From Lytechinus pictus (taxonomy: Eukaryota): a stretch of 64,000 nucleotides of DNA. The DNA lies in NCBI RefSeq assembly GCF_037042905.1, contig NC_087251.1, positions 35,032,001-35,096,000 of the forward strand. Reading direction: 5' to 3'. Made by a program: the position numbers and the translations under genes. Shown here in pieces: positions 1-22,700 of this stretch. The first letter of the stretch is position 1; every line of letters begins with the position of its first letter. Under the pieces are notes generated by a model, which saw only the letters and a program-made list of their open reading frames with translations, was not told where the DNA came from and ran no database searches.

Positions 1-183
1 GAAGAAAAAAAGATCGAAGGAGAAGGAGAAAAGACGAACAACGAGAAAAGTCCAAGGAAGCGAGAAGAACAAGAAGGAAAAGAAAAAGGGAAAGAAAGGG
101 GGTGGGGGAAGAGAAAAGAGAAAAGAAAGGGAAAATGAAGAATATGTGGTGGAGAAGAAAGCAAACGGGGGGGGGGGGGGAGG
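1..183. repeat. Purine-rich low-complexity tract ending in a G run
   Basis: almost entirely A/G. Confidence 0.8.
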
Positions 184-230
184 GTGAAAACGCACAGAAT
201 AGTGTTTTCCATTTTATATTTTTTTCACAG

Positions 231-327
231 GTTTTATCTGTTCCGGCGCCCGGTGGTCGTGATCAGTGATCCCGATATTCTGAAAGACATTCTGGTGAAA
301 AGTTTCTCCAAGTTTACCAATCATGAT
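231..327 (+). CDS. P450 exon (FYLFRRPVVVISDPDILKDILVKSFSKFTNHD)
   Basis: ttttcacag acceptor, gtaagt donor; clan-3 N-terminal motif. Confidence 0.93.
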
Positions 328-3300
328 GTAAGTCACAAATTATCTTTCTTGATTAGCGAACAATTAGTTGGACAATATATTTTACAATGTTTATTAACGA
401 TTTATGATTACCGAAGATATCTTATTTGAATTAGTTATATTCGCATAAATATACGATATAGGCCTACTATATTTAAAATGAATTATTCGATACAGTAATT
501 CCAAGAAATAAAAGCTCTAATACTATGCATGCGAGTAGTTTGGCTATAGAATCCCACCTGTTTATGTCCTATTTGTCATAGACATTCGTCTTGAAGAACA
601 GACCTTTAGATCAAAGTTTATTGGATCTTCGTGATCAGAGATGGAAAGATGTGAGAACAGTCATTACTCCTACATTCAGCGCGCTCAAGATGAAACAGGT
701 GTGTTGTAAAGAAGACGGAGTCATCCTCACCCAAACGGTCCAATCAGATATGATTATCTGTTTATTGATTTTTTAGATATTTATTTGTGTTATTTCATTC
801 ATCCATAAATCATTGATATATATGTATAACTATATATATATATTTATTTATTTTACGAATACAATTATGAGAAAAATTCACTTTATTCAATTACATGTAT
901 GTCATTTATGTCTTTTATCATTTTTTATTCATTCAATCAATCATTCATTCACAATCAATTCATTCATTCATTCCGCTTTAATTCAACTTTTATTTTTGTA
1001 TCGGCCTGCTATGATAGTCAAAAGCAATTTAAACATTTATTATTATTTCTTATATCGCAATTATGTGCTGAAAAGTGTCATGAAATGATCAATTTCTGCA
1101 ATGTTCCAAATTGTATTTCATGATTATTAGAAAATGGGAGAATATTGGCTTTGTGATTATCATAGGAGATTAATAATAATATGAAACACTTGTAACAATT
1201 TTGTCATGGGTTGAAAAACAACCCATGACAGCTATATATCTTTTAAGAATCCTCAAATGGTATTAATCAAAACAACGTTCATTGAAATTGCAATTTGAAT
1301 TCTGCATATACGATTGTCTTATTTTTTTTTATTTAGGGGGATATAATAGCATCCATACCCGTTGGTTTTTAATATGGGTAGTGCGAGAAGTTTTACCATC
1401 TATAGTATTATAATTGAATATTTTAGAATGTTTTGTCTTAATTTTATATTCGCTTTCTCGCTCAAGCTTTTATTTCTAGAAACACTTCTCTCTGGTCATG
1501 ATGGTAATATCATAATTAGGACTAGTTTGTTTCAAACAAACACTGAAGATGCGTGAAATTATTTCATAGAAAGTAAGCCTATCAAATGTAATTTTTGAAA
1601 TGATCTAGCCTACATTTGACGATGCTATTCATGATCTAAATTTCATTTAGATGTCTCCCTTGATAAACGAATGTTGTGATGTTCTGGTTACTTATCTGCA
1701 AAAGAAGCGAGAGGAGGACAACGATATAAGCATTTTCAGGTATAATTGTTTCGATCATTCATTGTTACAGTAGTGAAATTTGCTTTAGATTAATTACATT
1801 TTATACAAATCACTGTAGTTTGACCGGGCGCGCGCACACACACACACCCTCACACAAACACACATACCAGACACACACCCTCACACCCCACACAAAAAAA
1901 TATTCCAACTCCTCGTTAGAAAGCAGTAATTTCATTTTAAAATCTGCACCTGCCTTCGGTAATAAAACAAGTATTTGAACAAATATCATTATGAGATATT
2001 GAGAATTATGAGAATTGAATTGTTTTTTCTAACTGCATCGCAACAATTTCATTGAAATATGAAGAATGCGATGCCTGCTTTAATACTCATTATATTTTCC
2101 TTTCTTTCCTTTCTGTATTCAAAGCGTTTTTGAATCATTCACGACGGACGGTATTGCTGAATGTGCATTTGGACTTCAGGTTGATGCCCAGAACAATCCC
2201 GATAATCAATTCGTTAAACATGCTAAAGCGATCATGGAAGCTTCTGTAAAGAGCCCCGTAGCGATGCTGGCAGGTTAGTGCTTATAATTATCATATTAAC
2301 CATGTTAATTACATCGTCATATAGGAATGTATACGGGGGGGGGGGGGTATTATTTGGTTCGGGGGAGGGGGAAATGATATGCGTTCAAGAACATAAAGGC
2401 GTCTACATGGCAAAGGGTGGCAACGAGCACAGAGCACTGATCTGTAGTATGCAGATCAGCGGCATAGAGTTCTCTCTCATTGGAGCTGAACAAGGGTTTT
2501 GACCTAAAGAATAAAATACAGCGCACATATTTGGGTGTATTTTGTGAAAACTTGTATACACAAGAAGATTTTTAGGGGAAGGGTAACTGATATGATAACG
2601 ATGGGAAAAGGAACATCGATAATCGTTGCATTCTTAAATTAAAATGCCCGATTCGTGCACGCATTTTTTTCATTGAACCCTTCACCGCTCCACAACGTTG
2701 TTGCTCAATGGATTGGTCTTCTGACTTTGAAACAGAGGGTCGTTGGTTCGAATCCCAGCCATGACGTAATTTCCTTCAGCAAGAAATGTATCCACATTGT
2801 GCTGCACTCAACCCAGGTGAGGTGAATGGGTACCCGGTAGGTTAAAAAATCCTTGAATGCCTGAGCGCCTAGGCAGCCCAGCTAAAGCAGGGGTAATAAT
2901 AAAAGCAGGGCCCGCTGGGAGAACAGTTTTCAGAACTGAAGTGACTTCCCTGGGTAAATATACATATATTGATATTATTATTTTTCATTGAAAGCAATTT
3001 ACAAAAATAGTTCGATATTCAGTGGATTTATTAAATAGATGGCATTGAATTGTTTAAAGTCTTTTGTTTATATCGTCTTTATGCAGGAATTTTCCCTCCA
3101 TCCGCCTACCTGTTTAATGCTCTTGACATCGGGTTAATTCCCGCCGCAACGAGGACATTCTTTAGAGATGTTGTTGTCAAAGCTATCGATATGAGGAAAC
3201 AGTCCCCTAATAGCGAGGTGGGTTAGAAAATTGATCGCAAGGAGTTATTGCATTAGCTTGTGTAATAATTTGAAAACAGAAAAAATGTCAATCGTATAAA

Positions 3301-6300
3301 AATGTAAAATATTTTACATTGTCAATAAATCTGTAAGCGTGTAGATACAATGCATGTCCTAAGCGCATTATAAATAACCAATCTGTATATTACTAAAGAA
3401 AATCCTTATCATTGCAACCACGCCTAATGCTTGTATTTATATAGAGGAAAGACTTTTTGCAACTTATGATGAACGCCCACAATGATGACGATATCGGCTC
3501 AAAGGTCAACAAGGACACGAACGATCTTCATAACCTGATTGAAGAGCACAGTGATAATCCCCTCTCCTCAACTCAGAAAACTCAACTAACCATGGATGAA
3601 ATATTTGCTCAGGTATAGAACCATGGTATAGTATTGACCCGAGTGTTGCTCGGAAGCCGGGGGGGGGGGGGGGTCACCTAACCTGGCTGGATAGGTAACA
3701 AGTTTCTCTTGTTCATGGTAAAGATTGCACATTTTGAATGACTGGACGCCATCCATTTTCTAACAGGTGGTTTAAACCAGGGAGAGGTTCAAATTTTTCT
3801 ATGAAATAAAAAAGGGATTTATATCAGCTGCAAACCTAATCAAAAGTCCATATGAAACATACTAGCATTGAGGTACACACAACATGTACAATGCCAGACT
3901 ATCAGGCAGTGGAAACTACCTTCAAGACAACCCTTGCTGCACATTTTAATAATCAGTAACATATCTGACGGGCCAAAAAAATTAATAAATACAAATTAAA
4001 AAGGCATTAAAATTTTTACGGGGGGCAACCTGCCCTATCCCTCTTCAGGCACGCTAATAGTCCGAATCTTAAATCGCGTTGCTCTTGATTTCCTGACGCC
4101 CCCTTTTGAATCCAGGCTTTGCTGTTCTTTGCTGGTGGCTATGATACGACAAGCCTTACGCTTGGTTTCCTGGCCTACTCCCTAGCAACCAATCCCGACA
4201 TTCAGGACCAGCTAATCAAAGAGGTGGATGAAATGACACCAACCAGAGATTCTGTCGACTATAACGCGGTCGCAAAGATGTCATTACTGGACATGGTTGT
4301 CTGTGAGACTCTCCGGTTATATCCGCCAGCAGTTGTGTAAGTCGAGCCATCTTCACCGTGCCATCCTTCTCAGTTCTTTCTTGCAGTCTGCTTACCATCC
4401 ATGCAAACATCACCGTGTTTTGCTCTACATTCTTAAGAAATCTTGCGAACTTTTGCGCCATGATGAAACTCTGTCCTCAGATATCACGAGTTCGTGGCAA
4501 GACGACCATTGAAATTTTTATAAGGGACTGAAAACAATATCAGTCCATTTGAAAAACAGGAATTTCACTGATGATCCATATAAATATTAGCTTATACCCT
4601 TTTGATTTTTCTTGTTTTCTTTGCCTCTAATCACAGAGGTGAGCGATGTTGTGGTGAGACACACACCGTTCGAGGATTAACAATTGAGAAAGGAAGCCAG
4701 ATCTTCTACTCTATGTATAACATCCACCGTGATCCATCTCTTTGGCCAGAACCTGAGAAATTCGACCCCTCAAGGTTTGTTCTTCGAAAATATTTCTTCG
4801 AATAAAAGAAAGTAGTTCATAATGCACATAGTTACCTCTCTTACTAGCAGTTTGATGACATACTATTTACAATTATATGACACCTAGATAGATCCTTGTG
4901 ATTTGATTGGTTGTTTGATATCGATCATTCAGCCCATTTTACAATGACGTCATCGACCGTGCAATTTTAGATCCATTCATCGTGCAATTTTGGATCCATA
5001 CGATTTTGTCCATTGCACTCGCGCACCGAGACTGCAGCTGCAGGCACCAGCAGTGCGCTTGTTGTAATGACGTAACAATCAACAGACCGAACTCGCACTG
5101 CATGAGCATGTTTTGCATCGAAATTCATGAATTTCATATGAAAAAAAAAAATTCATGAGGGTGTTTCATATAGCTGTTGAGCTGTTCGTTAAGTTACGCA
5201 CAACTTTACGCACGACTGGAACATGTTCTTAGGTCATAAATCAATTACATAGGGATATCACATAGCACAAGAAAGGATCACCAGTCGTGCGTAAAGTCAT
5301 TTGTATTTATATGCACAGAGATACGATCTTACGTATACGTAAGCTCCCGAAGGGAGCTAGAGAGGGAACTCTTTTCGCGCGTTTTTGATTTTCCATAGGT
5401 TTTGTACATAACAAACATGGCTGCCATTTGGCCAATTTGAAGGTTGATTTTGGAAGGTCAATGTTTAATTCATGAGTAATGACGTCAAAATACGCATAAT
5501 GCACTTGTATGATTGGATAAAACGCTAATGTTTTATTCATGTACTCATGCATTAAACATTTTTTTCCTTCCCACAATTCCCTACGATATCAGTGCGAAGT
5601 GTCGTTCTTTTTTACTCTGCGAAATTCAACATTTGAAATACAATAGCAAGACTAATTATCTGTTTATAGAATTAGTATCCGGAATCATGATTTCTGAGTG
5701 AAATTCAGTTGAGCAGAAAATTATGAGGGAACATTTACATCAAAGTAATGGCATTCCATACAAATAAAAGTAAGTTAAGTTCAATTTCGTGCTTTGATCT
5801 CGGTTGTAATTGTAATGTGTTTGCTGCTGGGGTTCGGCGTCGCAGTCAGGGCCTTATGTACTTTGTGTAGTTTACTTCGGAAACCACAATTTCCATATTT
5901 CCATTACTGAGATCTGACTCCGGATCTGACTGACATATTTTCTCAGAAAATAATAGTTTTTCGTAGAACTAAGTTGGTTAATTAGAATGCTTCATGTCCG
6001 TCCTTATTAAATCTGTATTCCAGTACATTGTCATATATCAGGGGTAGATGTGGACTTGTTCAGTAACGGCAAAGCTGCATTAAATCTAAGCCAAATAATA
6101 TAGTCAGAGCGGGAAATGGGCATTGATACCGCCGGTGCCAGCCGGCTGCGAAATTGCCGATGGCGATGTAGACTAGGTCAGATTAGGTGTTGGGAATTAA
6201 TGTCACTGACAAGCTTGAGTTGAAGTTTAAAGTTGGGCCTGAGCCTACTGATTTTTTGACACCGCTATTCCATCTTTATATGAATCAATATAATTCTCTG

Positions 6301-9300
6301 CATTTAAAAAGAAGTTAATTTTAAATCGATTATTTAAATGAACTAGGCCTAAATCTATTTGGAATGATATTGATATCGGTAGATTTGCCACTGCCCACTG
6401 GTGGAATGGTTTGAGACAGATTTTAACATTAGTCTTTTTTTACTAAAAAGTAAGGCCCTAGGATAGGTCTAACTTAGATCTTGATTTCTAAAAATGAAAT
6501 TCTAGATCTGTCTGGTTTGACTTTTTCTACGAAGATTTAAATTAACTTTATTCTAGTCCCTAGTTGGACTAAAATTATATAACGGAGTTAAATGATTCTT
6601 ATTTTTTGGGGACAACATTTCTTTGTCAGGTTTCAAACTGCTCAGTTATCGTATACCATGAGTGCATTTTTTTTTTGGGAAGGGGTGACAAAATTTAAAG
6701 TGCCCCATTCTGAATTTTATAAGTATAAGTAGAGAGAGGGCTGATCCAATTGATTTATCTTTATTTTCCTCCTCACTTGACCATATTTATGGTGAAAGGC
6801 AAAGGGTCATTTAAACTTGCGAGCAAGCTAACTTTTTTTTAAAATCAAAATCAAACTTGAAGAGGAACTCACTTAGATGTAGAGATTCACATGTTTATAG
6901 ATCTAGACGATTTAAAAAAAAACCAATTGTCTTGCACTGGTGAATGAGCGAGAGCCAAATTATCACACAAATAATAATTATCCTACATCTGTCAAAGCTG
7001 GCTTGCTGTATAAGATTGACAAAAGGCCTCGCTATAGTAGGCCACGAATATGCTTGAACCATTTACTGACTCTTATTGACAATGAAGATGGTCAGTGGAA
7101 ACAGAGCCAGGTAGGCCTATGCCTATGTCGTCAGTGGAACATAATACAGAGAGAAGGAAGTTTTCGGTCAAGACCAGCTTTTTTCTAGTTGGGAATATTC
7201 AGAGGCTTAGGATAGGACTATATGTAGCTGGAAATTTTGAAAATATTGTTTTAAAAGAGGGATTTTGTTTATCACCTCTAAAATTCTAAACTGTATTGTG
7301 TGTATTTTGAATTGCAGATCCAATGGGATCAAGTTCTAAGCAGTCCCAGCCCAGTCAGAAGTACAAAGTCAACTACCTATTACACATCACCAAGAGTTAC
7401 AATCTGATGAGGAACAGGATATTTGAACTGAAAACTTGTAAGGTATGCTTGTTTTCGTTAAAAAAAAGGCCTATTTCTTTTTTATTTGGGGGGGGGGGGG
7501 GGCTATAGCAACTTTTTCTGAATCATGTTATCCCATATAGTAAAGCTCCGTTGTGAGTAAATATTTATTTGGATTCAGATTCACCAGTATTTCCATTCTC
7601 ATCAATGCATACTTATTGTCCATGTCTCTTATCTTATCTACATGAGTCATATGTGATATCACTTTAAAACTCAGTTACTTTGTAGACAGAAATAAAAAAG
7701 GACAAAATATTGAGAGTAATTTTATGATATATATTTGAATGAGTTTACACACTTAATCAAAAAAGTTCTATGAATAATGCTTTATGAATAGTGATCTATG
7801 ATTTTTACCTGGCTATATAGATTACTACATGTGCATTATCTAAACAATATTGCATGGAAAATTAGGGCCTAATTAAAAGTTTAAAACTTCGTAATAAACT
7901 GAACTAGATGAGTAAGAATAATTTATATCAGCAGCTCATTTTGTTCTTTTCTTTTTTTGTGTTTACCATGCAGGTTCCGCAGGCAGTTTGAGTATCACCA
8001 GGGCAGATTATAAGAACAAATATGGAGGCCAAGTTCATAACAAGTAGCTACTTCATCACAATTACATATTTTAAAAATTGAATGAATTTGAATAAACATG
8101 TCAATACATATTGAATGTTGCTTGCACAACACATCTGTAGAAAAAAATTGGAGTATTGATATTTAGGTCCATAGGTTTCACACAAGATTGAAATATTTTC
8201 CCAAAGGGCACACCTACCCACCCTTTATTAATGTTCTAATCATCTACATGTAGTAGTAGTAGTGAAATAACTGTTTATGATATAAGTAGTTTGAAAGGGA
8301 TAAGTTGTATTCTGGTAATATAATCAATTCAGAATGGGTCTTTACTGAGTTCTGGGCTATGTACATGCCTACAGACATACACAAGACAATAAGAAATAAT
8401 GGATTTTCATTGAAAATGTGCATACTAAAAAAAACAAGGTGACAGAACAAAGGATTAAGAAATCACCCTCACTCCTGGACCTCATTTCATTAAGTCTAAC
8501 CACTACTCTAACTCTTTGCCATTCTGGTAATTACCATGGAAACATTAAAGTAACAGATCAACATTGAGGTTCCCATGCTAGTTGCTAGTTACAATTGGGG
8601 CAAATTTACCATAATTGACGTCTTTATGAAACAAGGATCTGTAGTGCTGGACATTAAGCTGTTGAATTTATTTTTTGGGGGAAGTGAAAAGTGGCACTGT
8701 TTTGTTCGTTTTTAATCTCTTTTTGTTCTTGTAGCACTGTATTGTTCATGTCCTGTATTATGAACTAAATTAGCTCTTCAAATGAAAAAAAAAAATTGTT
8801 GGAAATAGAACACAGCTCTAGCAGCACTTCACAACAATAGACAATAAGCAATTTTATTACTAATTTACTAATGTGCAGATTTGGGAAGGCACTCTTTAGA
8901 GAAATGTGGCAATGTGCTCCCTTTTTTGTGAAGTGCCCTCGGTTAGATTAGCATGCTATTTCTTGTCAGCAAATGCTGAAAAAAAATTACTTGATATTTG
9001 AGTAACCGACTTTGAGAGAGAGGTATATCGTTAATTTTTTTAATGACATCCTTGATGTCCCCTTATATTGACTAAATAAGGCTTATCAATACCTATGAAA
9101 GTAATTTTTTTTAATTTGTTTTCTCTAGATTTTACCAAAAGAAATACATCCCCTCCCATGTAACAGCCTTGCAATTTCTGTTGCATTCATTATATGCATT
9201 TTGCTGATGTAATGTGATGCTTTGGCGAGAAAAAGAGGATAGGAATATTTTGATCACATATTCAGAAATTGATTCCTTAATAAATATTTTAATTTGAAAT

Positions 9301-12129
9301 ATACTTTCTAATTTTGATATTCGTGATTTATTTATTCACATTGCGTGAAAGATATGTGATAATGATGTTATTGCTACCAAACTGTGTTGTGATGTAGGTA
9401 ATGATGATAATGAAGAATACTTCTATATGACTGGAATATGATGGTGCTACTGATTGATTGATTTTGTTTGTCAGGTGTCTATGGGTATAATACTAGTACA
9501 ACAGGTAAGAGTATAACAAAGTATCAAAATACCATGCATGCATGGCAAGATAGCCCATAAAAATATGGCATACTGTGACATTTTGAGATCAGGTGCAGCC
9601 AAATTAGATATTCTTCCTAAAGAGATAAATGAGTTTGATACTTTGATTTAAGAGTGGGATAAAAATGATATGAGAATAATTGTTTGCTCGCATGATTATG
9701 TGGTACATGTATGTGTGTGTGTGGAAGAGAGGGGGAAGGGTGGGATCGATGGATAGATTTTGGGGCGGGCAGGTACAAATAAAATTTCATCTTGTTTGGA
9801 AGTGACCTTTTTAAGATAGCCTTGATGAGAGTGAATTCATGCGGGGGGGAGGGGGGGGGGGGTACTGGGCTGTCTTAATTTTGCTCCCATCCCAAACTCA
9901 GAAAATGTTTTTTTTTTAAATCTTTATAAGATTTGCACCAGATTGTTCATTTCAATTTCAAAATAAAGACAAAATGGCCTTCTAAATTGCTTTGCTCTCT
10001 TGCTCTGATCATTTTAAGTATTTACCCCCCCTAAAAAAAACCCCAAACATATAAATAATTTTGGCTATTAATGATGTGTAATGAAAATAATATGCAGTGA
10101 TGACTGCATGAATAGATCGAGCAAGCAGATCCCTAAGTTCAATCCTATATATTAATGAATTCCTTGTAAGCATCCACATTTCTTCAAGGGAAATAGCTTT
10201 AGCAATAAATAATTTTATTAATTGATGTAGTAATAATCGCGACAGGAAAATATGTAAACAAGGAAAGATGAATTAACAACTGAATACCGGGGGGTGAACG
10301 GGGGAATGAATGACATAATCTACCTTATTAATATTATTTACCTAAGACGCAACTCTATGAATTCATTTCATAATCAATCACGTCGCGCATTATGCTAATT
10401 AGTAACAATATACTTATTTGCATATCTTTACGCTGTGCGCGCAGGCCACGCCTCCGTTTCGCTGGTGTGCCATGAAGTTGTGGTGTCCATAGGCTTGTAC
10501 GCGAAAAATGGGAGCAGTGTGCACTTTTGACCTTCCAAAATTTCCCCATGTCTAACCGGATGCAGAAGCGGAGTTTCACCCCCCTGTTTATATGACACCT
10601 AGATAGATCCTTGCGATTTGATTGGTTGTTTGATATCGTTCATTCAGCCCATTTTGCAATGACGTCATCAACCGTGCAATTTTGGATCCATTCATCGTGC
10701 AATTTTAGATCCATACGATTTTGTCCATTGCACGCGCGCACCGAGACAAATAAATACGCATGTTGTAATGACGTAACAATCAACAGACCGAACTCGCACT
10801 GCATGAACATGTTTTGCATCGAAATTCATAAATTTCACATGAAAAAAAAAATCTATTTTTATGTGTCATATAAACCAAATAATGAATGTTTTTTTCATTC
10901 GTGCAATGGACAGAATACTTCATTCGGTGAAAGATGAAATAATGATCCATTCAACTCGGCTGCGCCTCGTTGAATGGATCATTTCATCTTTCACCTCATG
11001 AAGTATTCTGTCCATTGCACTCATAAACATTCATTATTTGTATACTTACGAACAGCTTTATGAAACACCCACCAGGTGCATATAAACCAAATAATGAATA
11101 TTTTTGTATTCGTGCAATGGACAGAATACTTCATTCGGTGACAGATGAAATAATGATCATTTCATCTTTCACCTCATGAAGTATTCTGTCCATTGCACTC
11201 ATAAACATTCATTATCTGTATACTATTTCATCCTGTTGCCACGTTTGTAATCGTCTAAGACTACGTTTGTAATAGCAGAAAGTCCATTCGGTCAAGCTAA
11301 GTTGATTCCAGTGCGCCCTCTACTTGATCTTGATCGCTTATTCAGGTTGCGGTAATGAATAAAAAACTTACGTTGTTTGTCCTTATTCTTATATCATAAC
11401 CATGTATGCCGAAGACTCTCGTCCAGACACGGAAAAGTGCGTAACCTCCATGAAAATATTTATACTTTGTCCCCCTCCCCCCAAAAAGTTATTTTTGAAG
11501 AGATTTAATCATGTATTGTATTATTGGATGTAATATTGGAATAAACAATAAAAATCATAACTAATTTTGAATAATCGATATATCTCCCTTCTTTGAAGGT
11601 TTAGCAAGCAGAATCGTGCTAACCGGCACCCGATGGCCTGGATACCATTTGGTGCTGGACCTAGGAACTGTATCGGGATGCGGTTTGCTTTGATGGAGAT
11701 TAAGATGGCCACTGTTCGTATCCTCCAGAAATTCCGATTTGTGCCAAGTGCAAACACGGTGGTAAGATCATGAAATTATAGGTACACCCTATAAATGGTT
11801 TCGGGAAACAATCAATTTTTAAAGTAAATTGTTTACTTTGCGTGATTTGATGAGGTGATTTGATCATCAATGCAGTTGGACATTAGTCAAATAATTCATT
11901 ATAAAAGACAGAATCCACTAAGCGGGGAATTTCTTTAACATTTTCTTCCCGAATAAGGTAAAAACCGTAATAACAATCTTTCTTTATAAAATAACTATTG
12001 TTTTATATTTGCTCAGATTGCTACTGAACGACATTCGTTTATCTTTTCTAGATTCCTGTGAAGTTCGGTACTGGAGAAAATCTCAAACCTGATGGCGGTA
12101 TGTTCCTTGGGATCGAAGAGCGCGTGTGA
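231..12129 (+). CDS. Cytochrome P450, clan 3 (CYP3A-like), 5'-partial; 10 exons: 231-327, 582-698, 1651-1739, 2125-2273, 3087-3217, 3445-3612, 4116-4336, 4637-4774, 11599-11761, 12052-12129
   Basis: Manual splicing at GT-AG sites gives 1351 nt, an uninterrupted frame of about 449 aa ending in TGA. Motifs: C-helix WKDVR, I-helix AGGYDTT, K-helix ETLR, FDPSRF, heme motif FGAGPRNCIG. Confidence 0.96.
582..698 (+). CDS. P450 exon (TFVLKNRPLDQSLLDLRDQRWKDVRTVITPTFSALKMKQ)
   Basis: catag acceptor, gtgtgt donor; WxxxR motif. Confidence 0.93.
1651..1739 (+). CDS. P450 exon (MSPLINECCDVLVTYLQKKREEDNDISIF)
   Basis: tttag acceptor, gtataa donor; 89 nt, phase fits both neighbours. Confidence 0.9.
2125..2273 (+). 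CDS. P450 exon (VFESFTTDGIAECAFGLQVDAQNNPDNQFVKHAK...)
   Basis: caaag acceptor, gttagt donor; E-helix D-x-I-x-x-x-AFG motif. Confidence 0.92.
2678..2980 (+). mobile_element. tRNA-derived SINE
   Basis: B-box ggttcgaatccc; family core tgctgcactcaacccaggtgaggtgaatgggtac shared with three other copies; (TTA)-like tail; flanked by tttttcattgaa direct repeat (2666-2677 and 2981-2992). Confidence 0.85.
3087..3217 (+). CDS. P450 exon (IFPPSAYLFNALDIGLIPAATRTFFRDVVVKAIDMRKQSPNSE)
   Basis: tgcag acceptor, gtgggt donor; F/G region, frame compatible. Confidence 0.9.
3445..3612 (+). CDS. P450 exon (RKDFLQLMMNAH...LTMDEIFAQ)
   Basis: tatag acceptor, gtatag donor; clan-3 RxDFLQLM motif. Confidence 0.93.
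4116..4336 (+). CDS. P450 exon, I to K helices (ALLFFAGGYDTTS...ETLRLYPPAV)
   Basis: tccag acceptor, gtaagt donor; (A/G)GxDT and ExxR motifs. Confidence 0.96.
4637..4774 (+). CDS. P450 exon (GERCCGETHTVRG...HRDPSLWPEPEKFDPS)
   Basis: cacag acceptor, gtttgt donor; meander region. Confidence 0.95.
5314..10586. mobile_element. 5273-bp unclassified non-autonomous element (D) with 8-bp TSD and no TIR
   Basis: TTTATATG at 5306-5313 and 10587-10594; ends CACAGAG...CCCCCTG; subterminal 15-bp IR at 5447-5461 and 10527-10541. Confidence 0.8.
8478..8640. mobile_element. Degenerate MITE inside element D
   Basis: imperfect TIR ggacctcatttcattaag ... ctttatgaaacaaggatc. Confidence 0.4.
10587..11043 (+). 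mobile_element. Inner copy (C) of the Crypton-like hairpin element; its original first 8 bp are at 5306-5313
   Basis: starts tttatatgacac; internal gtgtcatataaaccaaataatgaat; ~170-bp terminal hairpin ending attcattatttgtat. Confidence 0.85.
11599..11761 (+). CDS. P450 heme-binding exon (FSKQNRANRHPMAWIPFGAGPRNCIGMRFALMEIK...)
   Basis: ttgaag acceptor, gtaaga donor; FxxGxRxCxG. Confidence 0.97.
12052..12129 (+). CDS. P450 last coding exon (IPVKFGTGENLKPDGGMFLGIEERV*)
   Basis: ttttctag acceptor, TGA stop; ATTAAA near 12184 is a possible poly(A) signal. Confidence 0.9.
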   Translation: MPVKFGTGENLKPDGGMFLGIEERV

Positions 12130-12509
12130 AATTTCGTGTCGTCACATGACCCATTACACATGGTGTGTAAAAGTGTAAAACAGATTAAAATTTTTACAAT
12201 GCCTTAACAAACTAATTTTTTAAAAAGTGTGAAGAAGTAATTGTATTTCTACAAGATTGTTATCATTTTTTTGTGGTAATTATATGAAATCAATAAGAGT
12301 TTTCAGTTTGATATTGTTTCAGTGCTCATTATTTTTGGTAGACGCATATCGCCCATTTTAGGTAATCAAGTATGGCACAAGGTTTCAAGTAAATGTCAAA
12401 GCAACAATACGTGAATAATCAACCGATATCAATGAATGAATGAAGAAAACTTTGCATAATAGCCCTTAGGCCTATTTAATAATATCATATTCGATTCTCT
12501 ATTTCTTTA

Positions 12510-14150
12510 GTAAACACAAAAAATCCCTTGAAAATCGGGGTCTTCCTGAAGATTAGGTTTGTCTTCATCAAAATTCTTTCCTGCTTAGCCCAATCTTAGA
12601 AACCTTGTTTTTGGTTTCAAAACCTGCCCCGAAGGTGCATAGATGAGCTGAATGACCATGGTGGTGTTTATAGGGTATATTTCATTTTACTTTAAAGATC
12701 GTGCTAATTAGCGGAAAATCTTTTGATGGTTAGATAAACGTTTATAATACACTCGGGCTCGTGGACCCTCCCTGGAAATTTATAGTTCATTCAAGTAATG
12801 ATTTACAATACATTTGATATTGTTACGTAATGGTAGTAGAGTTCAATCTTACACTTAATGAAGTCTGATCCGTGAATATAGCCGGAGGGTAGAGTCTTTT
12901 AAAAATATTATTCATCTTTTTTTCCTTGTGTTTTTTTTATCACAAAAGTAGAATTCTAAAGAAATTATATCGTTCATTATGTTGTGATAGATTTAAGTGC
13001 TTTCATTTGATTTCTCCTTTTGCTTCTTTTACTTCGTGAACGGTCATCACGCGCATTTAATTTTTCCCTATCTCAACATCAGCCTTCAGACAAAGTTGTT
13101 TATTAAATTGTTCTCAATTCCTATCATTACTATTTAATAATTAGTAGCGAATACAACGAAGCTAATCATCTTTTAACTCATTCCTTGGTGATTTCTTTGT
13201 ATCGTTTTATCCATGTTTTCTACATCATGATATAATTAAGGGTCTCTATTTATTATATTATATTCAAACCTTTCGTTGACTGATATATATGGAAGTTTTT
13301 TGAAATTCTTTGGGTTGCCTAAAAGAAAATGATCTGTCTTCGAACGTATCTTTGTTTTGTTTTATGTGTCGTTATTCGTAAATAGTGTAAGCGTTCAATG
13401 TGTGTTATCTGCCAACGATGTGATTACAATGAGGATTGGATTTAAATTTTATGCTTATAAAGTGTGGAGTTCCACAGGGGAGCACATTAGGCCCCATTAT
13501 TTTTATGTGCTATCAGCGATATGTGTATTTGTGTTTTTTGAAAAATAAATTACTTTGTTATGCTGATTCTTAATATGTGTTTTTTTTATAAGTGTACTTT
13601 GTAATAAGTTACTTACGTAAGGACCCCATTGGAAATTAGCAATATCGGATATCATGGGCAATCCTGTCAAGGTATTTTGATACTTTTCATCTTATTCGTA
13701 CCTGTTTTATATCTGGAGAATAAAATCAATCAATCAATCGTCAATCTTTTTATGTCCCTGGCAGAGAATTTTGAGAGCGATTCTAGCGAAAGTACCAATT
13801 GACTAGCTTTTTTTTTTAATTTTTCATTCAGCTATTTGGAGTATCTGATCTAGCCGTCTCTTTTGTCGGGGAGAGTCCACGAGACCGGGTGTAACCGTGG
13901 GTTTGTCACTTTGTCTTCATCCAAAGATTTTCCGCTGAATAACCTGATCCTCGATGTGAGGTGAAATACCCACACCAGAAAACACCGAAGTCGTTTTTAC
14001 CACCTAGAAGTCAACTATGCACCTTTTGTTAATTTTCGAAACCGAAAACAATGTCTTTGATTGGGCTAAGCATAAAATAATTTTGATGAAGTCAAACGTA
14101 GTTCTCGACCTCGTGTGAGCACCCCGTTTGGTAGCCATGATTTTAGTTGA
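12510..14150. mobile_element. Old TIR DNA element downstream of the P450
   Basis: diverged inverted repeats: cttcatcaaaatt..tgcttagcccaatc..aaggtgcatag (12550-12645) versus its reverse complement at ~14010-14100. Confidence 0.6.
13600..13740 (+). mobile_element. 3' tail of a CR1/L2-type LINE
   Basis: ggaccccattggaaattagc..., AATAAA followed by an (ATCA)n tail. Confidence 0.5.
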
Positions 14151-15360
14151 TTTTTTTTAATTCTGAGAATTTGTTTGTTACTAATCATTAAGTTAACAAT
14201 TTTGTTTTAATGTGCGTGGAATACGGACACCTCATCATGTTAGTTTAAAAAACTGGATTGCCATGCTGGTCTTTATCTACTGTATATATACATCATACCC
14301 GGCTTCTTACATTTATTTCTTCTCACATTTCTGTACACGTTGCCTAATTTACAAGTCTGTTTGATCCAGCAATGTTTCATCAAACATCTACTTGACTTAA
14401 TTTTTTTTTAAAGAATCAAAATCAAGGGGAAGAATAAATTATTACACAAGAAATAAAGCAAGCTTCCCATATTTATTTCACCCCCAAACCACGCATCTTA
14501 TTGGATATATCTTTTGAGGTGTTTTCACCATAAATCTGTGACGGACGCAAGCATGGATTATGGATTAAAAAAGAGACCGAAGAGGGCAGATGTCTGATAT
14601 TGATCACCCATACCGTGGTCAAACAGGTATAACCGGCATAGGTTTCTAAGCCTTACTGCCTCTCCGGAATATCATCATTCATTCAGATAGCGTATAGGTC
14701 TAAGCAGAGGTCCGAGATCGTCTGGGTCATCGACTGACCAGGGAATTCTCTGGATTGACCAGTCAGCGCGCTCCTGTTCAGTGGTACACAGACGGACAGT
14801 ACGTAACACATAATAATTTGTGATAAATATGGATCTTTATTGCAGATTACCAACGGGACATTCCCAATCCGTTCTGGATTAGGCACTCTTGTTTGTCACA
14901 CTCATTCTTGATTCTAAGAAAATATCAGTACTGGTTCTTGATCCCCGGCAATTTCAATATTGCCACACTGGTCATTCTTGTTTAGAGCATGTTTAGAGAG
15001 AGAGAGAACCTCGGCCGGATCACATGAATGACAGTGATTTTGAAATTGATGCTTGAGACGGGGACACGAAGAGCACAAAACTTATTGGAATAAATAAATA
15101 AATCGAAGGGCAGTGGAGGGGCCCGTGGAGGGGTAGGTTTAAGCTCGGTGGGTTTTTGTTTTTTTGAATTATTTTTATTTTGTAAATAATTGTGGGGGAT
15201 ACTTTGTGGTGTAAAAGGGAATCTCAGTCCATTACCACCATCAGCCACCACCCCCCCGAGAAATGGGGAAAGGGGCCATTGAATTGCAGGCAAGAAAGTA
15301 AAGAAAAATTAAAGTAATTGACCTAATGCACTGAAATGTCGTTCGTTCATCCAACGTGTA

Positions 15361-15495
15361 GTGGGCGTGGCAGGAGTGGGCGTGGACATGGTGGAAATGT
15401 CAATAAGAACTTGAGAAACGATACTCAAATTACCTTTTTTTGCAAAAGTGTGGGTAACCGCTCCCTAACCGCTACTGACTGAATGAGCGAAGTTG

Positions 15496-15541
<46 letters not shown>

Positions 15542-15720
15542 TAAGAAACATAGAGAGGGATATAAAGATATTAATAATAATGTATACGCATATAGAGACA
15601 GAGAAGAAGGGGGGGGGTTGCGTTGTTGGCCATCACGCAACACATCAGTAACATATCGTCCAATTACCATCCTCGTTTGTCAGTGTGTGGTGTGATGAAT
15701 GAATGAATGAATGAATGAAT
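15361..15720 (+). promoter_or_regulatory. Candidate promoter-proximal region of gene 2
   Basis: two GTGGGCGTGG (Sp/KLF-type) boxes at 15361-15385, (GA)n at ~15500-15531, (GAAT)n at ~15695-15720; CpG-richer DNA follows up to the first coding exon. Confidence 0.45.
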
Positions 15721-16579
15721 GGGTGAAATTTCTCTTGCTGGGTTTCAAAATAATTTTGGCAGTCACGATCATATCATGTCTCGTCCGTGGCTAGGAAAGC
15801 ACGCACCATCATCTTACACCCGTCACCCCTATCTCTCTCTCAGCTCTTCATTAGCTCAGCTACTTAGAACTATCACCGAGTCGTCCATCTGGATTTAATT
15901 ATGTCTTTTTGATTTGCGTATGATGATGAAATGAACTCCGGGTGACATTGGGGCGTAGTGGTCTATCTGTACTAGTCGACGGATACCTTTCAGTAGTTCG
16001 TCGAGAGCTCTTCGTGAACGGACGTACACCGAGAGCGGAGGGGGATTAGCTACCAGATTCATCCATATAATAACTTCATCAGTTTGCAGACTTCATTTCG
16101 ATCAACGTGCTTCAGGAGTTCTCTCGTCTCCACTGCACTCCGGATTCATTGCCGTCTGATTTGAGGAATATTACCTGAAAGCCTTTTTTTAGGAGTTGCT
16201 AAACGAAACTTTCCCGACTACTTCTAATTAGTATCATCGCATGGCAGATCGTCGATCTTGTTTTATCTTTTCTTGTTGTGGATTGGTTAAAGTGGGTCAT
16301 TAACCCTATTTTTCTTTTTTCACTTGGGAGAATGTAAAGATCAGGGGCAGCGAAGGTGAAACCTCAGTGAGCTCATCGACTTACCTAAAATCAATATTAT
16401 TGACAAGCCAGACAGGTGACGACGTCACGTCCAGGTAGAAATTAAAATAAATTCGCAAATCTCTCTTGGATTTCGGTGAAAATCCATCGAAGCTTGGTCG
16501 AAAGCTGTTAGTTCACGTGGTGACAGGAGACGGAGCTCAGTCATTGCTGAACAAGCCGCTGGACTTTGATTTTTTTAAC

Positions 16580-16722
16580 ATGACGATGGCGAGGTGCTTG
16601 TGGGTCGTGATGGCCCTGCTCGCCAGCTTCCAACTGGCGACGTCGATGAGGTATCAGACATCGGGTACAACCAGACAGGCCACATACCGATACGTGTATC
16701 CCGCCAACCGTGTTATTACCGG
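16580..16722 (+). CDS. First coding exon of a secreted or extracellular protein (MTMARCLWVVMALLASFQLATSMRYQTSGTTRQATYRYVYPANRVITG), possibly fibrillin/EMI-type
   Basis: AACATG start context, classic signal peptide, GC-rich codons, strong GG|GTGAGT phase-2 donor; family call is tentative. Confidence 0.75.
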
Positions 16723-19700
16723 GTGAGTCATACACACAAGATCTTTATACCTACCTAATGTTGGTCATATTATTTCATTAAAAAATAACCCTTTCCAGGT
16801 AGTATTAAAAACAACCCCAAACCAAAAATGTTTCCTTTGGCTTTGATTGACAGGTCATATCGTCATTATGCACATCATAGGGCAGATATTCTTTAATATT
16901 TTATAGCCCTTTAACAGGGCTCTCCTGGTAAAATTTTGATAGTCACGTCTGGAATAAGTGATGTTTATGGAGTATAAACCTTTTCTGGTGGTCACGGCAA
17001 AGATGGTGAAGACCTGGATTATGAGGTAAAAGGATTATTTATGAGAAATTTAAGATCTAGGAAAGACCTTTGCGGGAGAGAGATAGAAAGTGAAGAGGAC
17101 GAAGTAAACTTGAACTAAAAAAGAGAGGGAGAAAGGGCGAAGAAGTTAATATATTCTCTAAAGTTCAAACATTAATTTTATCCATAACCTAAAGAGCTCA
17201 AACGAAACGTAAACGCGTATTTTAATAATAGTTGTGTTAATTGATGGAATAGGTTTAAAACTGTATTCATTTTGATTTCATTTCGAACAAATGACAATGC
17301 TTGTCATTTTTTTTCAGCAACTTCCAACTAGTTTTAATCGGAAGAGCAAACATGTGCGATTGCTAAGTGAATGGGGGAGAACATTAAATTACAAAGTTCT
17401 GAACAAAATTCAGGCGAAGGATTATTCTGGGAATGGTATGTATTCTTTAACATTTACCAGTAGTTAAGCTCCATGAAGGTTGTCTCGCAACTAAAAAAAA
17501 ATGTTTGAAAGTGAAAGGCTCTCCTTTACAAAAGTTGTACTATGGGTGCAAGAACAGTCGCGCTTCTTGTTCAGTTCAGATTTAGAACCAATGAATAATT
17601 CGCCAGACTTGTTCGCTTGTTCTCATGATAATGTTGGTCAACATGAGGACAAATGTACGCGCAGGGAATGTAATATAATAATGACAACCAAGTTGACGAA
17701 TTAAACAGAGATCGCTATGTAAGGTATGTGGTTAAGGAAATTATTAGATTAGCAGTCGAGACATACAGCCAATATTTTTCATTCATTATTTTCTCCTTTT
17801 ATATGTCAATTTCGAAACAATATTAAAATGGAAAGAAGTGTACGTATAATTCGATCTCCGACTGTATGAACTGATAAAAGTCATCTCAATGACTGATATG
17901 TATGATTATATTATACAAGTCGCATTTAGGCCTGTCTGATTGATTCAGGTTGTTGGACAGATAAGTTGCATTTTCAGAAGAAAAATTAAAAACAAATGCA
18001 TCTGACCACTATGAAACAAATTTCCTCTTTATTTATTTTTTTTTAAATAGAAGAAGTCTCTTTTGTTTTTAGGGAAGAAAGAGCGTTTTGAAAGAATGAC
18101 ATAAACTACCTTCAGATGTCTCGAACTCATGTGTCCATTGAAAAGAAAATGACTAATTGTGTAACTGTCACCTGTTATGGCCAGTTACACATCAAGCTAT
18201 AGGGACACGTTCCATATGCCAAAATTCAGATGCAGGGAGGGGATAGGAAACTACTAAATGTTTAACGTATATATACCATATCATCTCAATAACCATGCCA
18301 TGTTTATTTCCTGTAGGATTTTAAAAAGCTTCTGATACCTTCAATGCCCAATCCGTCTTAATACAATATCGATGAGATACAGAAATGATGGTAGAGAAAC
18401 TGACTTTCCAGTCCGGGCGGTTTAACTCACTTTGCCTTTATTCGGTTAAAACGTTTTGTACTGATAAATCGGAATGAATAAATGCTGAATGGGATTCGAT
18501 GTTTGGGGAAGCTGAATAGGACCGTTTACATTAACACTTCTGTGAAAAGATACAAAGGTACTATCATGCGGCTTTTCCGTGGTTCAATTTAGGTGACAAA
18601 ATACGAGTCTGTTCAATCCGTTGCCTGGTCACGAAATCAGTCCTTCGCGATTGCGTTTACTTTGTAGGGCTATAGTTTTACAATCGGAACCCAGTTTCGA
18701 TTTATGGTTTTGATAATGACCATTGTCATGGTTTGATTCTCACCATAGCTTCATTTGTATTTGAGAAGATTGAAATTTTACCTCCCTTACCGTATTTCCA
18801 CGGTGGTCATGGTGGTGTTCTTTGTTAGCTCTAGATAGAGAAAGCTGCATACGCCTCACATCTTCAACGTTGGCTGCCTCTTCGAAATTGAGAACATGAA
18901 TAGAAAATGTAAGGAGAAAAGGAAAGGGAATGAATGAATGGATGGAAAGTGGGCGAAAAAAATGATTTGTAGAATATCCATGATACACGTGAAAGTTATA
19001 TTTAGAATGATAGACCAGCATATTTGACAGAAAAAAATAATTGTTAACTATTATGACGAAGAAGATTCTGTTAGTATTATTCATTGATGGAGGGTGAGAG
19101 AAAGAGATATTATGTGTGTGACAGAGAGAGGGTCGGTGTTTTTGTGTGTGTTACCCTTAAAAATTACTTGAATGATTTCCTATTTACGATGCAACCCCAA
19201 CGTACCAGGAATGTTCTTCCTCATATCCTCGAAGATGTTTACCTTGTAATCATAGCAGCTTAACCTCAATCATTTATCGCTACTATCTGAATGAAATAGC
19301 TGTCAAATTACATACTCAGACTCTCAGATTGGATGAATTAGATAATTGATGAGATTAACAGTTTACCGTAGTATATTCACATGGTGCAGGCAAGCGTGAA
19401 TACGTAACGACTGACATTTTCTTTCTAATGCATTATATTTATTTAATGACCTTACTGTCACTTTAATATTGTGGGGACATATACGATGTGATAAATTAAT
19501 GGGCGGACCCGTGACTGATAAACAGGTACGAATGTTTGTGTGCAAGGTCTAGGAATCAAAAGTGCCACAGGCATGACAGGTGAGTTGTAGCTAAAGTCTT
19601 CTATATTTTTTTTCGGTAAATAAAATGAGTACCATGTTTGTAGGAAATAATGCACTCTCTTACGTGACCAATCGATTAATTGATGATGTCATAAAGTTCC

Positions 19701-22700
19701 TTCATTAACCTAGAATTTGAAATAGATAAATTGTATTTCATTATTCAAAAAAATGTCTTGCCGCCTTAAAATTTCATGAAGGTCAAATCGATTTTAAGAG
19801 TATTTTTCTTTTTAGAAATAGATCTGATAGAAATTTTTGAATTTTATTTCTGAAGGATTGAATTGATGAATAAGGCTTGATGAACGAATGAAATTTCGTT
19901 TTGGAGAGCGTCAAATTTGGCAAGGATATATTTTTTTCGTTGCATATAAATCTTGAGTGGGTCTTTTTTCGATTTTTCTCTAAACTTTGCTTGAGGATTT
20001 CACCTCGATTCCGGACAACAAGAGGCGGTCCGATTTAAAAGGAAATTAAGAAGGCTGGAACCCCTTCAGCAACATGGTCTAAACAGTCCCACATTGATGG
20101 CCCACACACGATTTTTCTCTCATGTCCTTGTCAAAATTCTGCCTCTTGAACATGTTGAATAAAATGTCCATCTTCTCTGCCCTATATGCATCATTCACCC
20201 ATTCGTTTTCGAATAGAGAGGTGTTTTTTTTTCGAGGTGACAGTTTCGTCTAACCCCAAAGAAAAGAAACTTTGAAAAGAAAGTAGCACAATAAATGGGC
20301 CAGTCACGCGATAAAAAATACAAGAAGCCAGTATAAAGAAATCCGATTACCGCCTCGTTATTATGAAAATTCAGAGATATTGTCACAAATGTTATTGAAC
20401 ATTTGTTAGGTTCTGAGTTATGATATTTGTGCTAATTCAATTGCCCGGGGTATATGTCGAGCAGAGAAAAATGATTGTGAAAATACAAAGTGAAACCCGC
20501 GTTCCCGGACAGTATCAGTTTCATGACTGTTGATGTTAAAAACTTGTTTTTGATTTAAGGAACCCAAGAAAAAGCAAGTAAGCCACCAATATCATGAAAA
20601 CTAGAATACCAGTGAGTTAACCCTCTTCTGATATTGAAAAGACGAGTGCATAGTCCTTATTATCGAATGATGAATTTTGAAATGTTATAATAGTTTCGTC
20701 ACATGCGCAAAAAATGACCATACAACATTACTACGACCAAAAAGAACACTTTAAAAGCAATCACGTATATTATTGTAATTGAGTGCAAAAACACGCCACG
20801 ACAAAATAATAATTAAGCCGCTAAAAGCACAATTATCTCATCATTCTGCAGAAGATTGAATCTATCAGAAAAGGTTTGCTGTACATTGTACAACAGGTGG
20901 CATATTTCCGACTAACAAGACCGAAACCAAATAGTTGTAACTGTAACGTGCTCGACAACGAGGAGGATTGTTTCCATGGCAACGGCAAGCGTTTGGTTTC
21001 ATCATGGACCATGGTTTCATCAAACTTTGGCAGCAGACCTAAATCACGTTGATGACGTAGAGGAAACGATTGTCGGCTTTTCATGTGTCTGAAACTTCAT
21101 ATTTACTTTGTCAGGTCTACACGGTAGAGGGGAAAAACTTTTTTTATGTTTCACTTTCATTGCATGATTAGCACCGTAAAACGAAAGTGGAAGAAATTTG
21201 TTTTCGGTGCACATACTCTTAAAAAAAGTTATTGTAAAAACAAGTGTTATAAATACAGAGTCGAATACGTCTCACGGGTTAGTTGATTAGTCTGATTGTA
21301 TTATCAATAAAGCATGCATAAAAATTTGCTTTCGAATTTTCGACTGCATTTTTTTTGCCAAATCGACGCAAACCTTCTTAGCCTTTTGTCTCTTTTTTTT
21401 ATTTTTTTATCACATTTCTATTAGTGCCAGTGTTTTCTTATTTTTCTTTTGGGCTGGGAGTTGTGCTTATAAATTTTCATTTTCAAATTTGATCATCTCT
21501 TTGCGTGTTATCCTTTTCGAAGTCTCTCCGAGAATTGGGCACTGACCATTCTTGGTTGCACGGAATTGTGTCATTTGCCATCAAGGAGAAAACTTAATGA
21601 CAATCCAGACAGCTCGTTTGGGCCAATTATGGACTATAAAGATCTTGGAATCGTCGCAGTGCGTGAAAGGCAGAAGCAGTGATTTTGATCTCGATTAGTA
21701 AACTAAACAGTGAGTTCCGCTTTAAGATGACACGTAGACGAACCTGTTACTAAATGAATTATGAAGGTGTTGAAGTATGATGATCAATGGGCAAGGATTG
21801 TAATCTAATTGTCTACGCATGACCTTGTTTTTGGCTGGTCAGTCATTAATACTCCACTGATTGGCGTCCTATCATTTCTTGCATGCACTGAGTCGTTTGA
21901 TTTAGTTTCCTCTTGAATTCAAGACATATCGGTTTTAACATGTTTAATGAAAATATTCTTGATAAAGCCAGTCTTTACTACAATTTTAGTTCACTTTACA
22001 CAAAAATATGTGAACGTCGACCTACATCGTTACCGTGGTTACTGATACATACACCCGTAGGTTTGAGACATCAGGTATTACACTTTGCGCCGAATAAAAA
22101 AAAAAGATTGACAAAGCCATGGTATTTTTTGCAAGTTTGAGAGAATCAAATATAGCTCACAATAGTCCCGAGCTTTTTTTAAATATATTTTAAACATAGC
22201 GCACTGAAATCATAATAATTTAAGGAAGGGGTTAGAACCTGGGTATTTCAAGGGGGGGGGGGGAAGACAGTGTAAAGGTTACGTCACTATCCTTCTGAAT
22301 CGAACGATAGTGACAGTGGCGCGGATCACTTTTTACACTCTTTTTTTTTTCTTTCTTCGGTTTTTCCCCTTCTTCGTCTTTTCAACATTCCTCTCTATTT
22401 GTGATTGTATTCCTTGAAAAAAAAAAATAATGGGGTAAGCCCCCTGTGTGTTGCAGCATTGCCCTTGGTTCTAGGGAACTTCATATCGAATTGGCGAATA
22501 TTATGTTAATTTGTTTTGTAGTCGATGGATCGAGGCACTCATTATCATGATTATTTTAATATTACGCCAATAATTCTTGAAATCTTGAAATTCTAATAAG
22601 AATGAATTACAAATTTCACTATAATTCTTACGTTGGATGTTCATGATTTTTAAGGCACAATTTGATATGTTTAATTAATGTTCATTATTATTTTAGTAAT

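Follow-up and report, generated by a model that had tools for sequence, protein, structure and literature searches.

A non-coding transposon family with 8-bp target duplications and unlike ends in Lytechinus pictus

The stretch of DNA analysed here (the window) covers 64,000 nt of the Lytechinus pictus genome (assembly GCF_037042905.1, contig NC_087251.1, positions 35,032,001 to 35,096,000 of the forward strand) and contains, at window positions 5314-10586, a mobile element of 5273 bp. The 8-mer TTTATATG stands at 5306-5313 and again at 10587-10594 and forms a perfect 8-bp direct repeat around the element, exactly the target site duplication (TSD) that the first-pass annotation of this DNA had reported. 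On the left, the sequence context is tttgta TTTATATG CACAGAGATACG... (5306-5325), with the element starting as CACAGAGATACG at 5314; the right junction (10574-10599) reads ...TTTCACCCCCCTG TTTATATG acacc, with the element finishing as TTTCACCCCCCTG at 10586. The two ends had been described as asymmetric and lacking a terminal inverted repeat (TIR), and CA...TG is indeed the sole match between CACAGAGATACG and TTTCACCCCCCTG, a comparison of CACAG with CAGGG yielding the pattern CAnnG. No TIR pair is present among the 25 longest of the 89 inverted-repeat pairs in the element. Both internal repeats proposed earlier were recovered, namely a 15-bp inverted repeat at 5447-5461 and 10527-10541, which is 100% complementary, and a ccatagg...gtac motif near each end, the two copies of which (5393-5408 and 10487-10500) point the same way. 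Neither a poly(A) or simple tail nor a long terminal repeat (LTR) is present in the window copy, and its lack of a transposase open reading frame (ORF) was borne out by the absence of any stop-to-stop ORF of at least 100 aa and by the absence of Pfam matches above cut-off for its 32 ORFs of at least 45 aa. An Rfam search of the element likewise returned no match. The features of the window copy are listed below, with element positions counted from the first base of the element.

5306-5313, no strand: left TSD copy TTTATATG (sequence, flank pairing)
5314-10586, plus strand: subfamily A element, 5273 bp, non-coding (sequence, ORF, Pfam, Rfam, copy comparison)
5314-5327, plus strand: left terminal 14 nt CACAGAGATACGAT, the same in 15 of 15 aligned copies from several subfamilies
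5328-5343, no strand: perfect 16-bp palindrome CTTACGTATACGTAAG, element positions 15-30, left end only (sequence)
5342-5358, no strand: second hairpin AGCTCCC-GAA-GGGAGCT, element positions 29-45 (DNA fold), its inner edge being the commonest stub end (44-45; see below)
5393-5408, plus strand: left direct subterminal motif CCATAGGTTTTGTACA (sequence, cross-copy alignment)
5447-5461, plus strand: 15-bp subterminal inverted repeat, left arm, 134 nt from the left end (inverted-repeat search; covariation between subfamilies A and B)
5460-5560, no strand: local 19-nt inverted repeat in the left subterminal region, 5460-5478 and 5542-5560, 95% complementary, both arms conserved across aligned copies
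10487-10500, plus strand: right direct subterminal motif CCATAGGCTTGTAC (sequence, cross-copy alignment)
10527-10541, minus strand: 15-bp subterminal inverted repeat, right arm, 46 nt from the right end (inverted-repeat search, alignment)
10556-10586, plus strand: right terminal 31 nt, invariant between subfamilies and hairpin-free (alignment; fold z +0.85; 30-mer found 117 times)
10587-10594, no strand: right TSD copy TTTATATG, coinciding with the host repeat's first 8 bp (sequence, contig divergence points)

The boundaries are fixed independently by the surrounding host repeats, as had been claimed. An upstream host repeat breaks off at 5305 and picks up at 11045, a downstream host repeat begins at 10587 and has a second copy beginning at 4872, and the contigs of other copies part from the window exactly at 5305/5306 and 10587/10588. 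No ORF of at least 150 aa that could bear on the earlier label 'Crypton-like' for the host copy was found in window positions 1-20000. Window positions 4872-5305 and 10587-11065 form a three-level nest, in which a repeat resembling a miniature inverted-repeat transposable element was split at 5305/11045 by a repeat starting TTTATATGACACC (sister copy at 4872), and the latter then took the 5.3-kb element within its first 8 bp.

Further copies were sought in the whole 812-Mb genome. Allowing up to 2 mismatches, the left 30-mer of the element matched 101 times and the right 30-mer 117 times, the reversed control patterns of both matched 0 times, and the exact 16-mers occurred 192 (left) and 105 (right) times; from the two 30-mer counts we estimate roughly 110 full copies. 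The first-pass annotation had proposed checking whether the two ends co-occur with a different 8-bp TSD at each locus, and this is the case for about 50 loci. Of the 41 left/right pairs that lie within single fetched stretches, 38 have the same 8-mer on both sides, the 8-mer varying by locus, and 12 further loci paired by coordinate agree as well. Of the three non-matching pairs, the one at C7:17.63M is off by a 1-nt slip within a run of G, and those at C3:61.07M and C4:22.30M have unlike flanks. Ends that never pair elsewhere, or that belong to a version with ordinary TIRs and other boundaries, would have spoken against the element as described; the ends pair at those roughly 50 loci, and no such version was found. 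The observation of an 8-bp TSD with unlike ends is thus confirmed as real.

Sequence identity is consistent with the earlier suggestion that the element was recently mobilised. Over the first 200 nt, 40 of the 41 matches listed reach 97-100% identity, and whole copies of subfamily A (5.27 kb), to which the window copy belongs, are 94.5-99% identical. A second subfamily, B, is 4.13 kb long (e.g., C1:28602508-28606633) and also occurs in a 5.8-kb form with an extra 1.8 kb at B position 2263. Identity between the two subfamilies is 83-87% in the first ~524 nt and the last ~215 nt and drops to 75-80% in inner patches; hardly any change between subfamilies is seen in positions 1-73 and in the last 31 nt, against 82-87% identity elsewhere. 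Internal-deletion forms also exist, one of 667 bp and one a 78-bp mini element consisting of 17 nt of the left end and 61 nt of the right end, with its own TSD and with the target motif described below.

Several individual copies show unusual structures. A subfamily B copy of 20.5 kb (C3:69341434-69361985, duplication TAAATTTG) contains five tandem units at 2.15-kb spacing, centred on B positions 3371-3521, and thus represents an array growing within a transposon. A left end without positions 26-44 recurs at at least 6 loci, always preceded by the flank ...GGACATTGTACTGT(G/T)TGTTGTAGG, so that this copy belongs to a larger repeated unit or segmental duplication. At C17:14976630-14987223, another element, 5.3 kb long, sits within the last 16 nt of an A-like copy; about 10 bp of the tip are present twice, and the outer duplication GTGAGTGC is intact. 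Finally, an element of 2.3-4 kb with the ends GTGTA(C/G)CGGCGGAT.../...CCGCCGGTACAC is nested in the left end of five subfamily B copies (C2:23.42M, C7:12.15M, C7:18.37M, C20:12.19M, C7:17.63M), in both orientations, at position ~110-117 (...GCTGCCG|GCGGAC...). Its own tip resembles its target, and it appears to be a second site-specific inserter.

The ends themselves differ in organisation as well as in sequence. The left end consists, in order, of 14 nt, the 16-bp palindrome (positions 15-30) and the second hairpin (29-45), and its first 50 nt fold as single-stranded DNA at -9.3 kcal/mol (z -3.7). The last 50 nt show no fold (z +0.85), hairpins being confined to the left end. The length of the central (TA)n of the palindrome differs among copies, with the symmetry kept. 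The 15-bp inverted repeat changes between subfamilies from GGAAGGTC/GACCTTCC in A to GGAGGGTC/GACCCTCC in B; as this one compensatory change is probably a single evolutionary event, we regard it as suggestive rather than strong. We infer, as the first-pass annotation did, that the ends are recognised through subterminal motifs, an idea that gains support from the invariant termini and from the compensatory change.

Many insertions stand at a fixed spacing from a neighbouring motif. In the right flanks, the motif GCGCC[C/A][T/C]C starts exactly at +17, that is, 8 nt past the duplication, in 21 of 66, and 14 of 74 left flanks carry its reverse complement at the mirror position; occurrences at any other offset total 4 (right) and 3 (left), and the expectation for this regular expression is ~0.0006 per position under equal base use. 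The 36 paired rows comprise 13 with the motif in the right flank alone, 8 with it in the left flank alone, 15 without it and 0 with it in each flank; overall, it is present in 41 of 170 unique flanks. The window copy has the motif on neither side. Within the motif-bearing flanks, base use is also skewed outside the regular expression, +16 being A in 71%, +25 T in 61% and +29 G in 71%, and these extra positions fit the CTCF consensus; we refer to the motif as CTCF-like. Insertion in both orientations at an asymmetric motif points to a symmetric integration complex, as in DDE transposases, and argues against target-primed reverse transcription. A literature search retrieved no report of these termini and, among the matches listed, none of DNA transposons in CTCF-motif flanks.

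Double insertions were found at four loci, at all of which the motif lies 8 nt from the duplication. Three are head-to-head pairs with three identical 8-mers (C3:21.22M, with one A and one B copy, C5:24.86M and C11:33.31M), and the fourth (C12:17.86M) is a tandem pair reusing one 8-mer. P and other elements are documented to insert twice into a regenerated target, P dimers with an 8-nt junction being among the examples (PMC5932611).

Many loci retain a left end alone. Among left ends without a nearby right end, 9 of 18 are just 36-47 nt long. In a sample of 107 unique left ends, which were chosen and not drawn at random, 65 extend for at least 100 nt and 42 are short; about 8 of these 42 are nested insertions or internal deletions, leaving ~34 one-sided stubs. 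The inner ends of the stubs range from 16 nt, the detection limit, to ~50 nt, with a peak at 43-45 (n = 9), and for 39 of the 42 short left ends homology extends no further than 51 nt, the other three stopping at 60, 66 and 92 nt. In at least 12 stubs, which have 0-4 filler bases, both copies of the 8-bp duplication survive unchanged, many stubs stand at the canonical spacing from the motif, and in stubs of 44-45 nt the filler often finishes in G or TG, the last bases of the right end. The centre of the palindrome lies at 22/23, and the true end of the element (0/1) and the commonest stub end (44/45) are each 22 nt away from it.

No right-end stub was seen among 20 orphan right ends. Two 16-nt right-remnant candidates were rejected, the one on C17 being another element in the right tip and the one on C12 being judged the same by analogy. 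Excision from an inner pseudo-end at position 45 was also considered and set aside: no copy starts there, and the 3 hits to the pattern trace back to internal deletions or to a nested insertion. We infer that the stubs, together with the 78-bp and 667-bp copies, are what excision followed by imperfect repair would leave. Several left-end stubs sit within a satellite-like repeat (...TCGAACATGAATTTGGCGCCC...) in which each unit has a GGCGCCC motif, a possible repeated landing pad.

A search for an autonomous copy, for which ~40 long or orphan copies were fetched, found none among them. Subfamilies A and B are without coding capacity, and Pfam returned no match for 32 ORFs from A, for 31 ORFs of at least 110 aa in 16 loci from long copies, or for 41 ORFs from B. 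Where the extra length of longer copies could be identified, it consists of nested elements or an internal array: the nested contributors are an LTR retrotransposon, a Tc1-like element and a TIR element found repeatedly at B position ~110, and the 2.15-kb internal tandem array accounts for the added length of one long copy. The remaining long copies have extra sequence without an ORF of at least 200 aa. These results fit the earlier description of the element as non-autonomous; the first-pass interpretation is supported, and overall the family is young and non-autonomous with truly unlike ends. An open 817-aa frame at C12:261277-263727 matches the P transposase family PF12017 and could represent either a host gene of the THAP9 type or a P-like element that is autonomous. 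No boundary consisting of a TIR plus duplication was found around it, and subterminal-repeat matches near it were weak, close to chance, and were dropped.

The family was also looked for in public sequence sets. It is present in DNA contigs of four runs under three organism labels, and no RNA set is among the public sets listed as carrying it. Contigs of runs X7 and X10, filed under two other organism labels, carry the family over window positions 5308-10611, so that it is common to related species or strains. Word depth is far higher in X10, filed under one of those two labels, and some X7 contigs show 0-2 differences over ~270-330 nt, one of them also with 8 gaps. At window positions 7440-7972, contigs of the runs X1 and X2 lack 531 bp bordered by GT..AG; this reflects either a difference in length between copies or splicing of a transcript from the element.

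We consider it probable that the element is a copy of a non-coding family of 8-bp-TSD DNA transposons, likely moved in trans by a hAT-like DDE cut-and-paste transposase that was not found here. By analogy, the family is filed as most likely working like hAT-type cut-and-paste elements, and no superfamily membership is claimed. The first-pass description of the family as unclassified or poorly described stands as far as checked; with hAT as the closest design, a wholly new superfamily is not needed. Hermes has dissimilar ends of ~450 bp with 17-bp imperfect TIRs, 8-bp duplications at nTnnnnAn, and a left-end quasi-palindrome (11-27) bound by two BED domains, the right end binding none (PMC10368747). 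Similar to Hermes and other hAT elements, the present family has an 8-bp TSD, dissimilar ends several hundred bp long, a (quasi-)palindrome at the left end only (here 15-30) and CAnnG tips, and the 16-bp palindrome resembles, as a structural parallel, the Hermes transposase-binding site. Similar again to hAT elements with their non-autonomous derivatives (Ds, hAT miniature elements), it would have end requirements reaching past the tips and non-coding derivatives moved in trans. In contrast to Hermes, it has no TIR, no nTnnnnAn pattern and, among the copies listed, no linked hAT transposase, and it shows aim at a flanking motif and one-sided stubs.

Under the hAT-like reading, a transposase multimer would bind the left-end palindrome and the subterminal repeats, as the BED domains do at the Hermes left end, and the complex would then synapse the unlike right end, cut at CA/TG and integrate with an 8-bp stagger. 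The target might be picked by a DNA-binding module of the enzyme itself or by a motif-bound host protein. The stubs would be excision scars, and the stub end at 44/45 could arise from an occasional cut at the mirror position by the palindrome-bound complex or, alternatively, from a stretch protected during repair by the complex or by the hairpins.

Several points weigh against this reading. The ends share only CA..TG, set against a hAT norm of short TIRs of at least 10 bp (about 10-25 bp, often imperfect). The target pattern nTnnnnAn is absent from the 55 right flanks examined (T at position 2 in 36%, A at position 7 in 33%). Excision by hAT elements forms hairpins on the flanking DNA and leaves footprints without transposon sequence, and for this reason stubs of 16-45 nt do not follow from the textbook hAT mechanism; textbook chemistry does not account for their one-sidedness either. 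The piece that a mirror cut would free, starting at position 45, was not seen reinserted. No transposase was tied to the family either: the hAT dimerisation domain PF05699 has 62 genome hits, of which, compared by eye, none lies inside any of the copies listed, and PF12017 has 8 genome hits, with the 14-nt termini (up to 2 mismatches) carried by 0 of the 5 loci fetched. At the window locus, neither an empty site nor presence/absence variation was seen in public contigs, where the surrounding repeats prevented a clean empty-site joint. For binding by CTCF, the evidence is the likeness of the motif.

The alternative that survives best, which we nevertheless hold to be rather unlikely, is that the family is a non-autonomous member of the P superfamily served by a THAP9-type transposase, with the stubs left by a deep staggered cut comparable to that of P. 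The 8-bp TSD would suit such an origin, as would the distant subterminal inverted repeats, the element-derived sequence staying at donor sites and the double-insertion dimers with an 8-nt junction: zebrafish Pdre2 combines terminal repeats of 13 bp with subterminal ones of 12 bp and 8-bp duplications, and P elements show 17-nt staggered cleavage (PMC10983969), so that Drosophila P and Pdre2/THAP9 are like the present family in TSD length, distant subterminal repeats, scars keeping transposon sequence and dimers. The genome also has an open PF12017 frame, the 817-aa frame mentioned above. In contrast, P elements have TIRs of 13-31 bp and a symmetric 17-nt stagger, whereas the present family has no TIR and leaves stubs of up to 45 nt from the left end only instead of 17 nt from both ends. 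The lack of the 14-nt termini at the fetched PF12017 loci, and of any inverted-repeat-plus-duplication boundary at the 817-aa frame, speaks against this origin as well.

Less probable again is another, perhaps undescribed, superfamily with 8-bp TSDs (Zisupton/KDZ, Novosib, Sola3 or a new one) whose enzyme reads two unlike ends. The missing TIR, the missing hAT-type target pattern, the motif targeted at a fixed distance and the one-sided stubs would all agree with this, as would the lack, among the matches listed, of any hAT or P transposase tied to the ends, and the outcome of the literature search. Zisupton/KDZ, Novosib and Sola3 carry ordinary TIRs, which counts against them; for Zisupton/KDZ and Novosib the 8-bp TSD length fits, and ordinary TIRs are absent here. 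An enzyme that was not found is also no evidence for a new one, and Hermes provides hAT precedents for the palindrome at the left end, for the CAnnG tips and for the 8-bp stagger (PMC10368747).

Helitron, Crypton and DIRS elements make no TSD, and an 8-bp duplication is present here at ~50 loci. Plant non-TIR Mutator-like elements are DDE-type and keep TSDs of 9-11 bp with ends that are not inverted repeats; under the hAT-like reading, the present family shares with them the DDE type and a TSD without a TIR, with a TSD of 8 bp. Non-LTR retrotransposons and short interspersed elements are at odds with the constant 8-bp TSD, the lack of a tail, the lack of graded truncation and the occurrence of both orientations. 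We regard as very improbable a retroelement copied from an RNA with a CACAGAG 3' end (sense on the window minus strand), the stubs being extreme 5' truncations from stalling in the terminal hairpins. In its favour, only the would-be RNA 3' end ever survives alone, this CACAGAG end folds into hairpins, and a few filler bases are present where stubs join the flank. Against it, 38 of 41 pairs have a duplication of exactly 8 bp, both orientations occur relative to the asymmetric motif (13 versus 8), the far end is precise and filler-free in all full copies examined (38 pairs and 12 loci; its 16-mer is found 105 times exactly), truncation points show no spread (at most 51 nt in 39 of 42 short ends, 60, 66 and 92 nt in the other three, and full length in the remaining ends), the 78-bp mini element retains both ends, there is no poly(A) or simple tail, and the only reverse transcriptase ORFs seen belong to a nested LTR element and not to the family.

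A bolder proposal, which we regard as doubtful, is that the family represents a class of TIR-less DNA transposons whose enzyme reads two unlike ends, is aimed, directly or via a bound host protein, 8 bp beside CTCF-type sites, and can also cut at the mirror position of the palindrome. If this were true, animals would have a new way of aiming integration, and insertions at insulator-like sites would have a natural source.

If the hAT-like reading holds, a cut-and-paste enzyme can work on ends with only two common bases, and would do so by way of a palindrome at one end and subterminal repeats, and such recognition of unlike ends bears on how these enzymes pair ends. Annotation tools that seek TIRs would miss families of this kind. 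Fixed-distance targeting of a CTCF-like motif and left-only stubs are two unusual properties of the family: the first would be an uncommon instance of a DNA transposon integrating in an animal under the guidance of a motif and could explain transposons piling up at, or spreading, insulator-like sites, and the second, given how abundant the one-sided stubs are, would offer a readable record of excision that can be dated and mapped.

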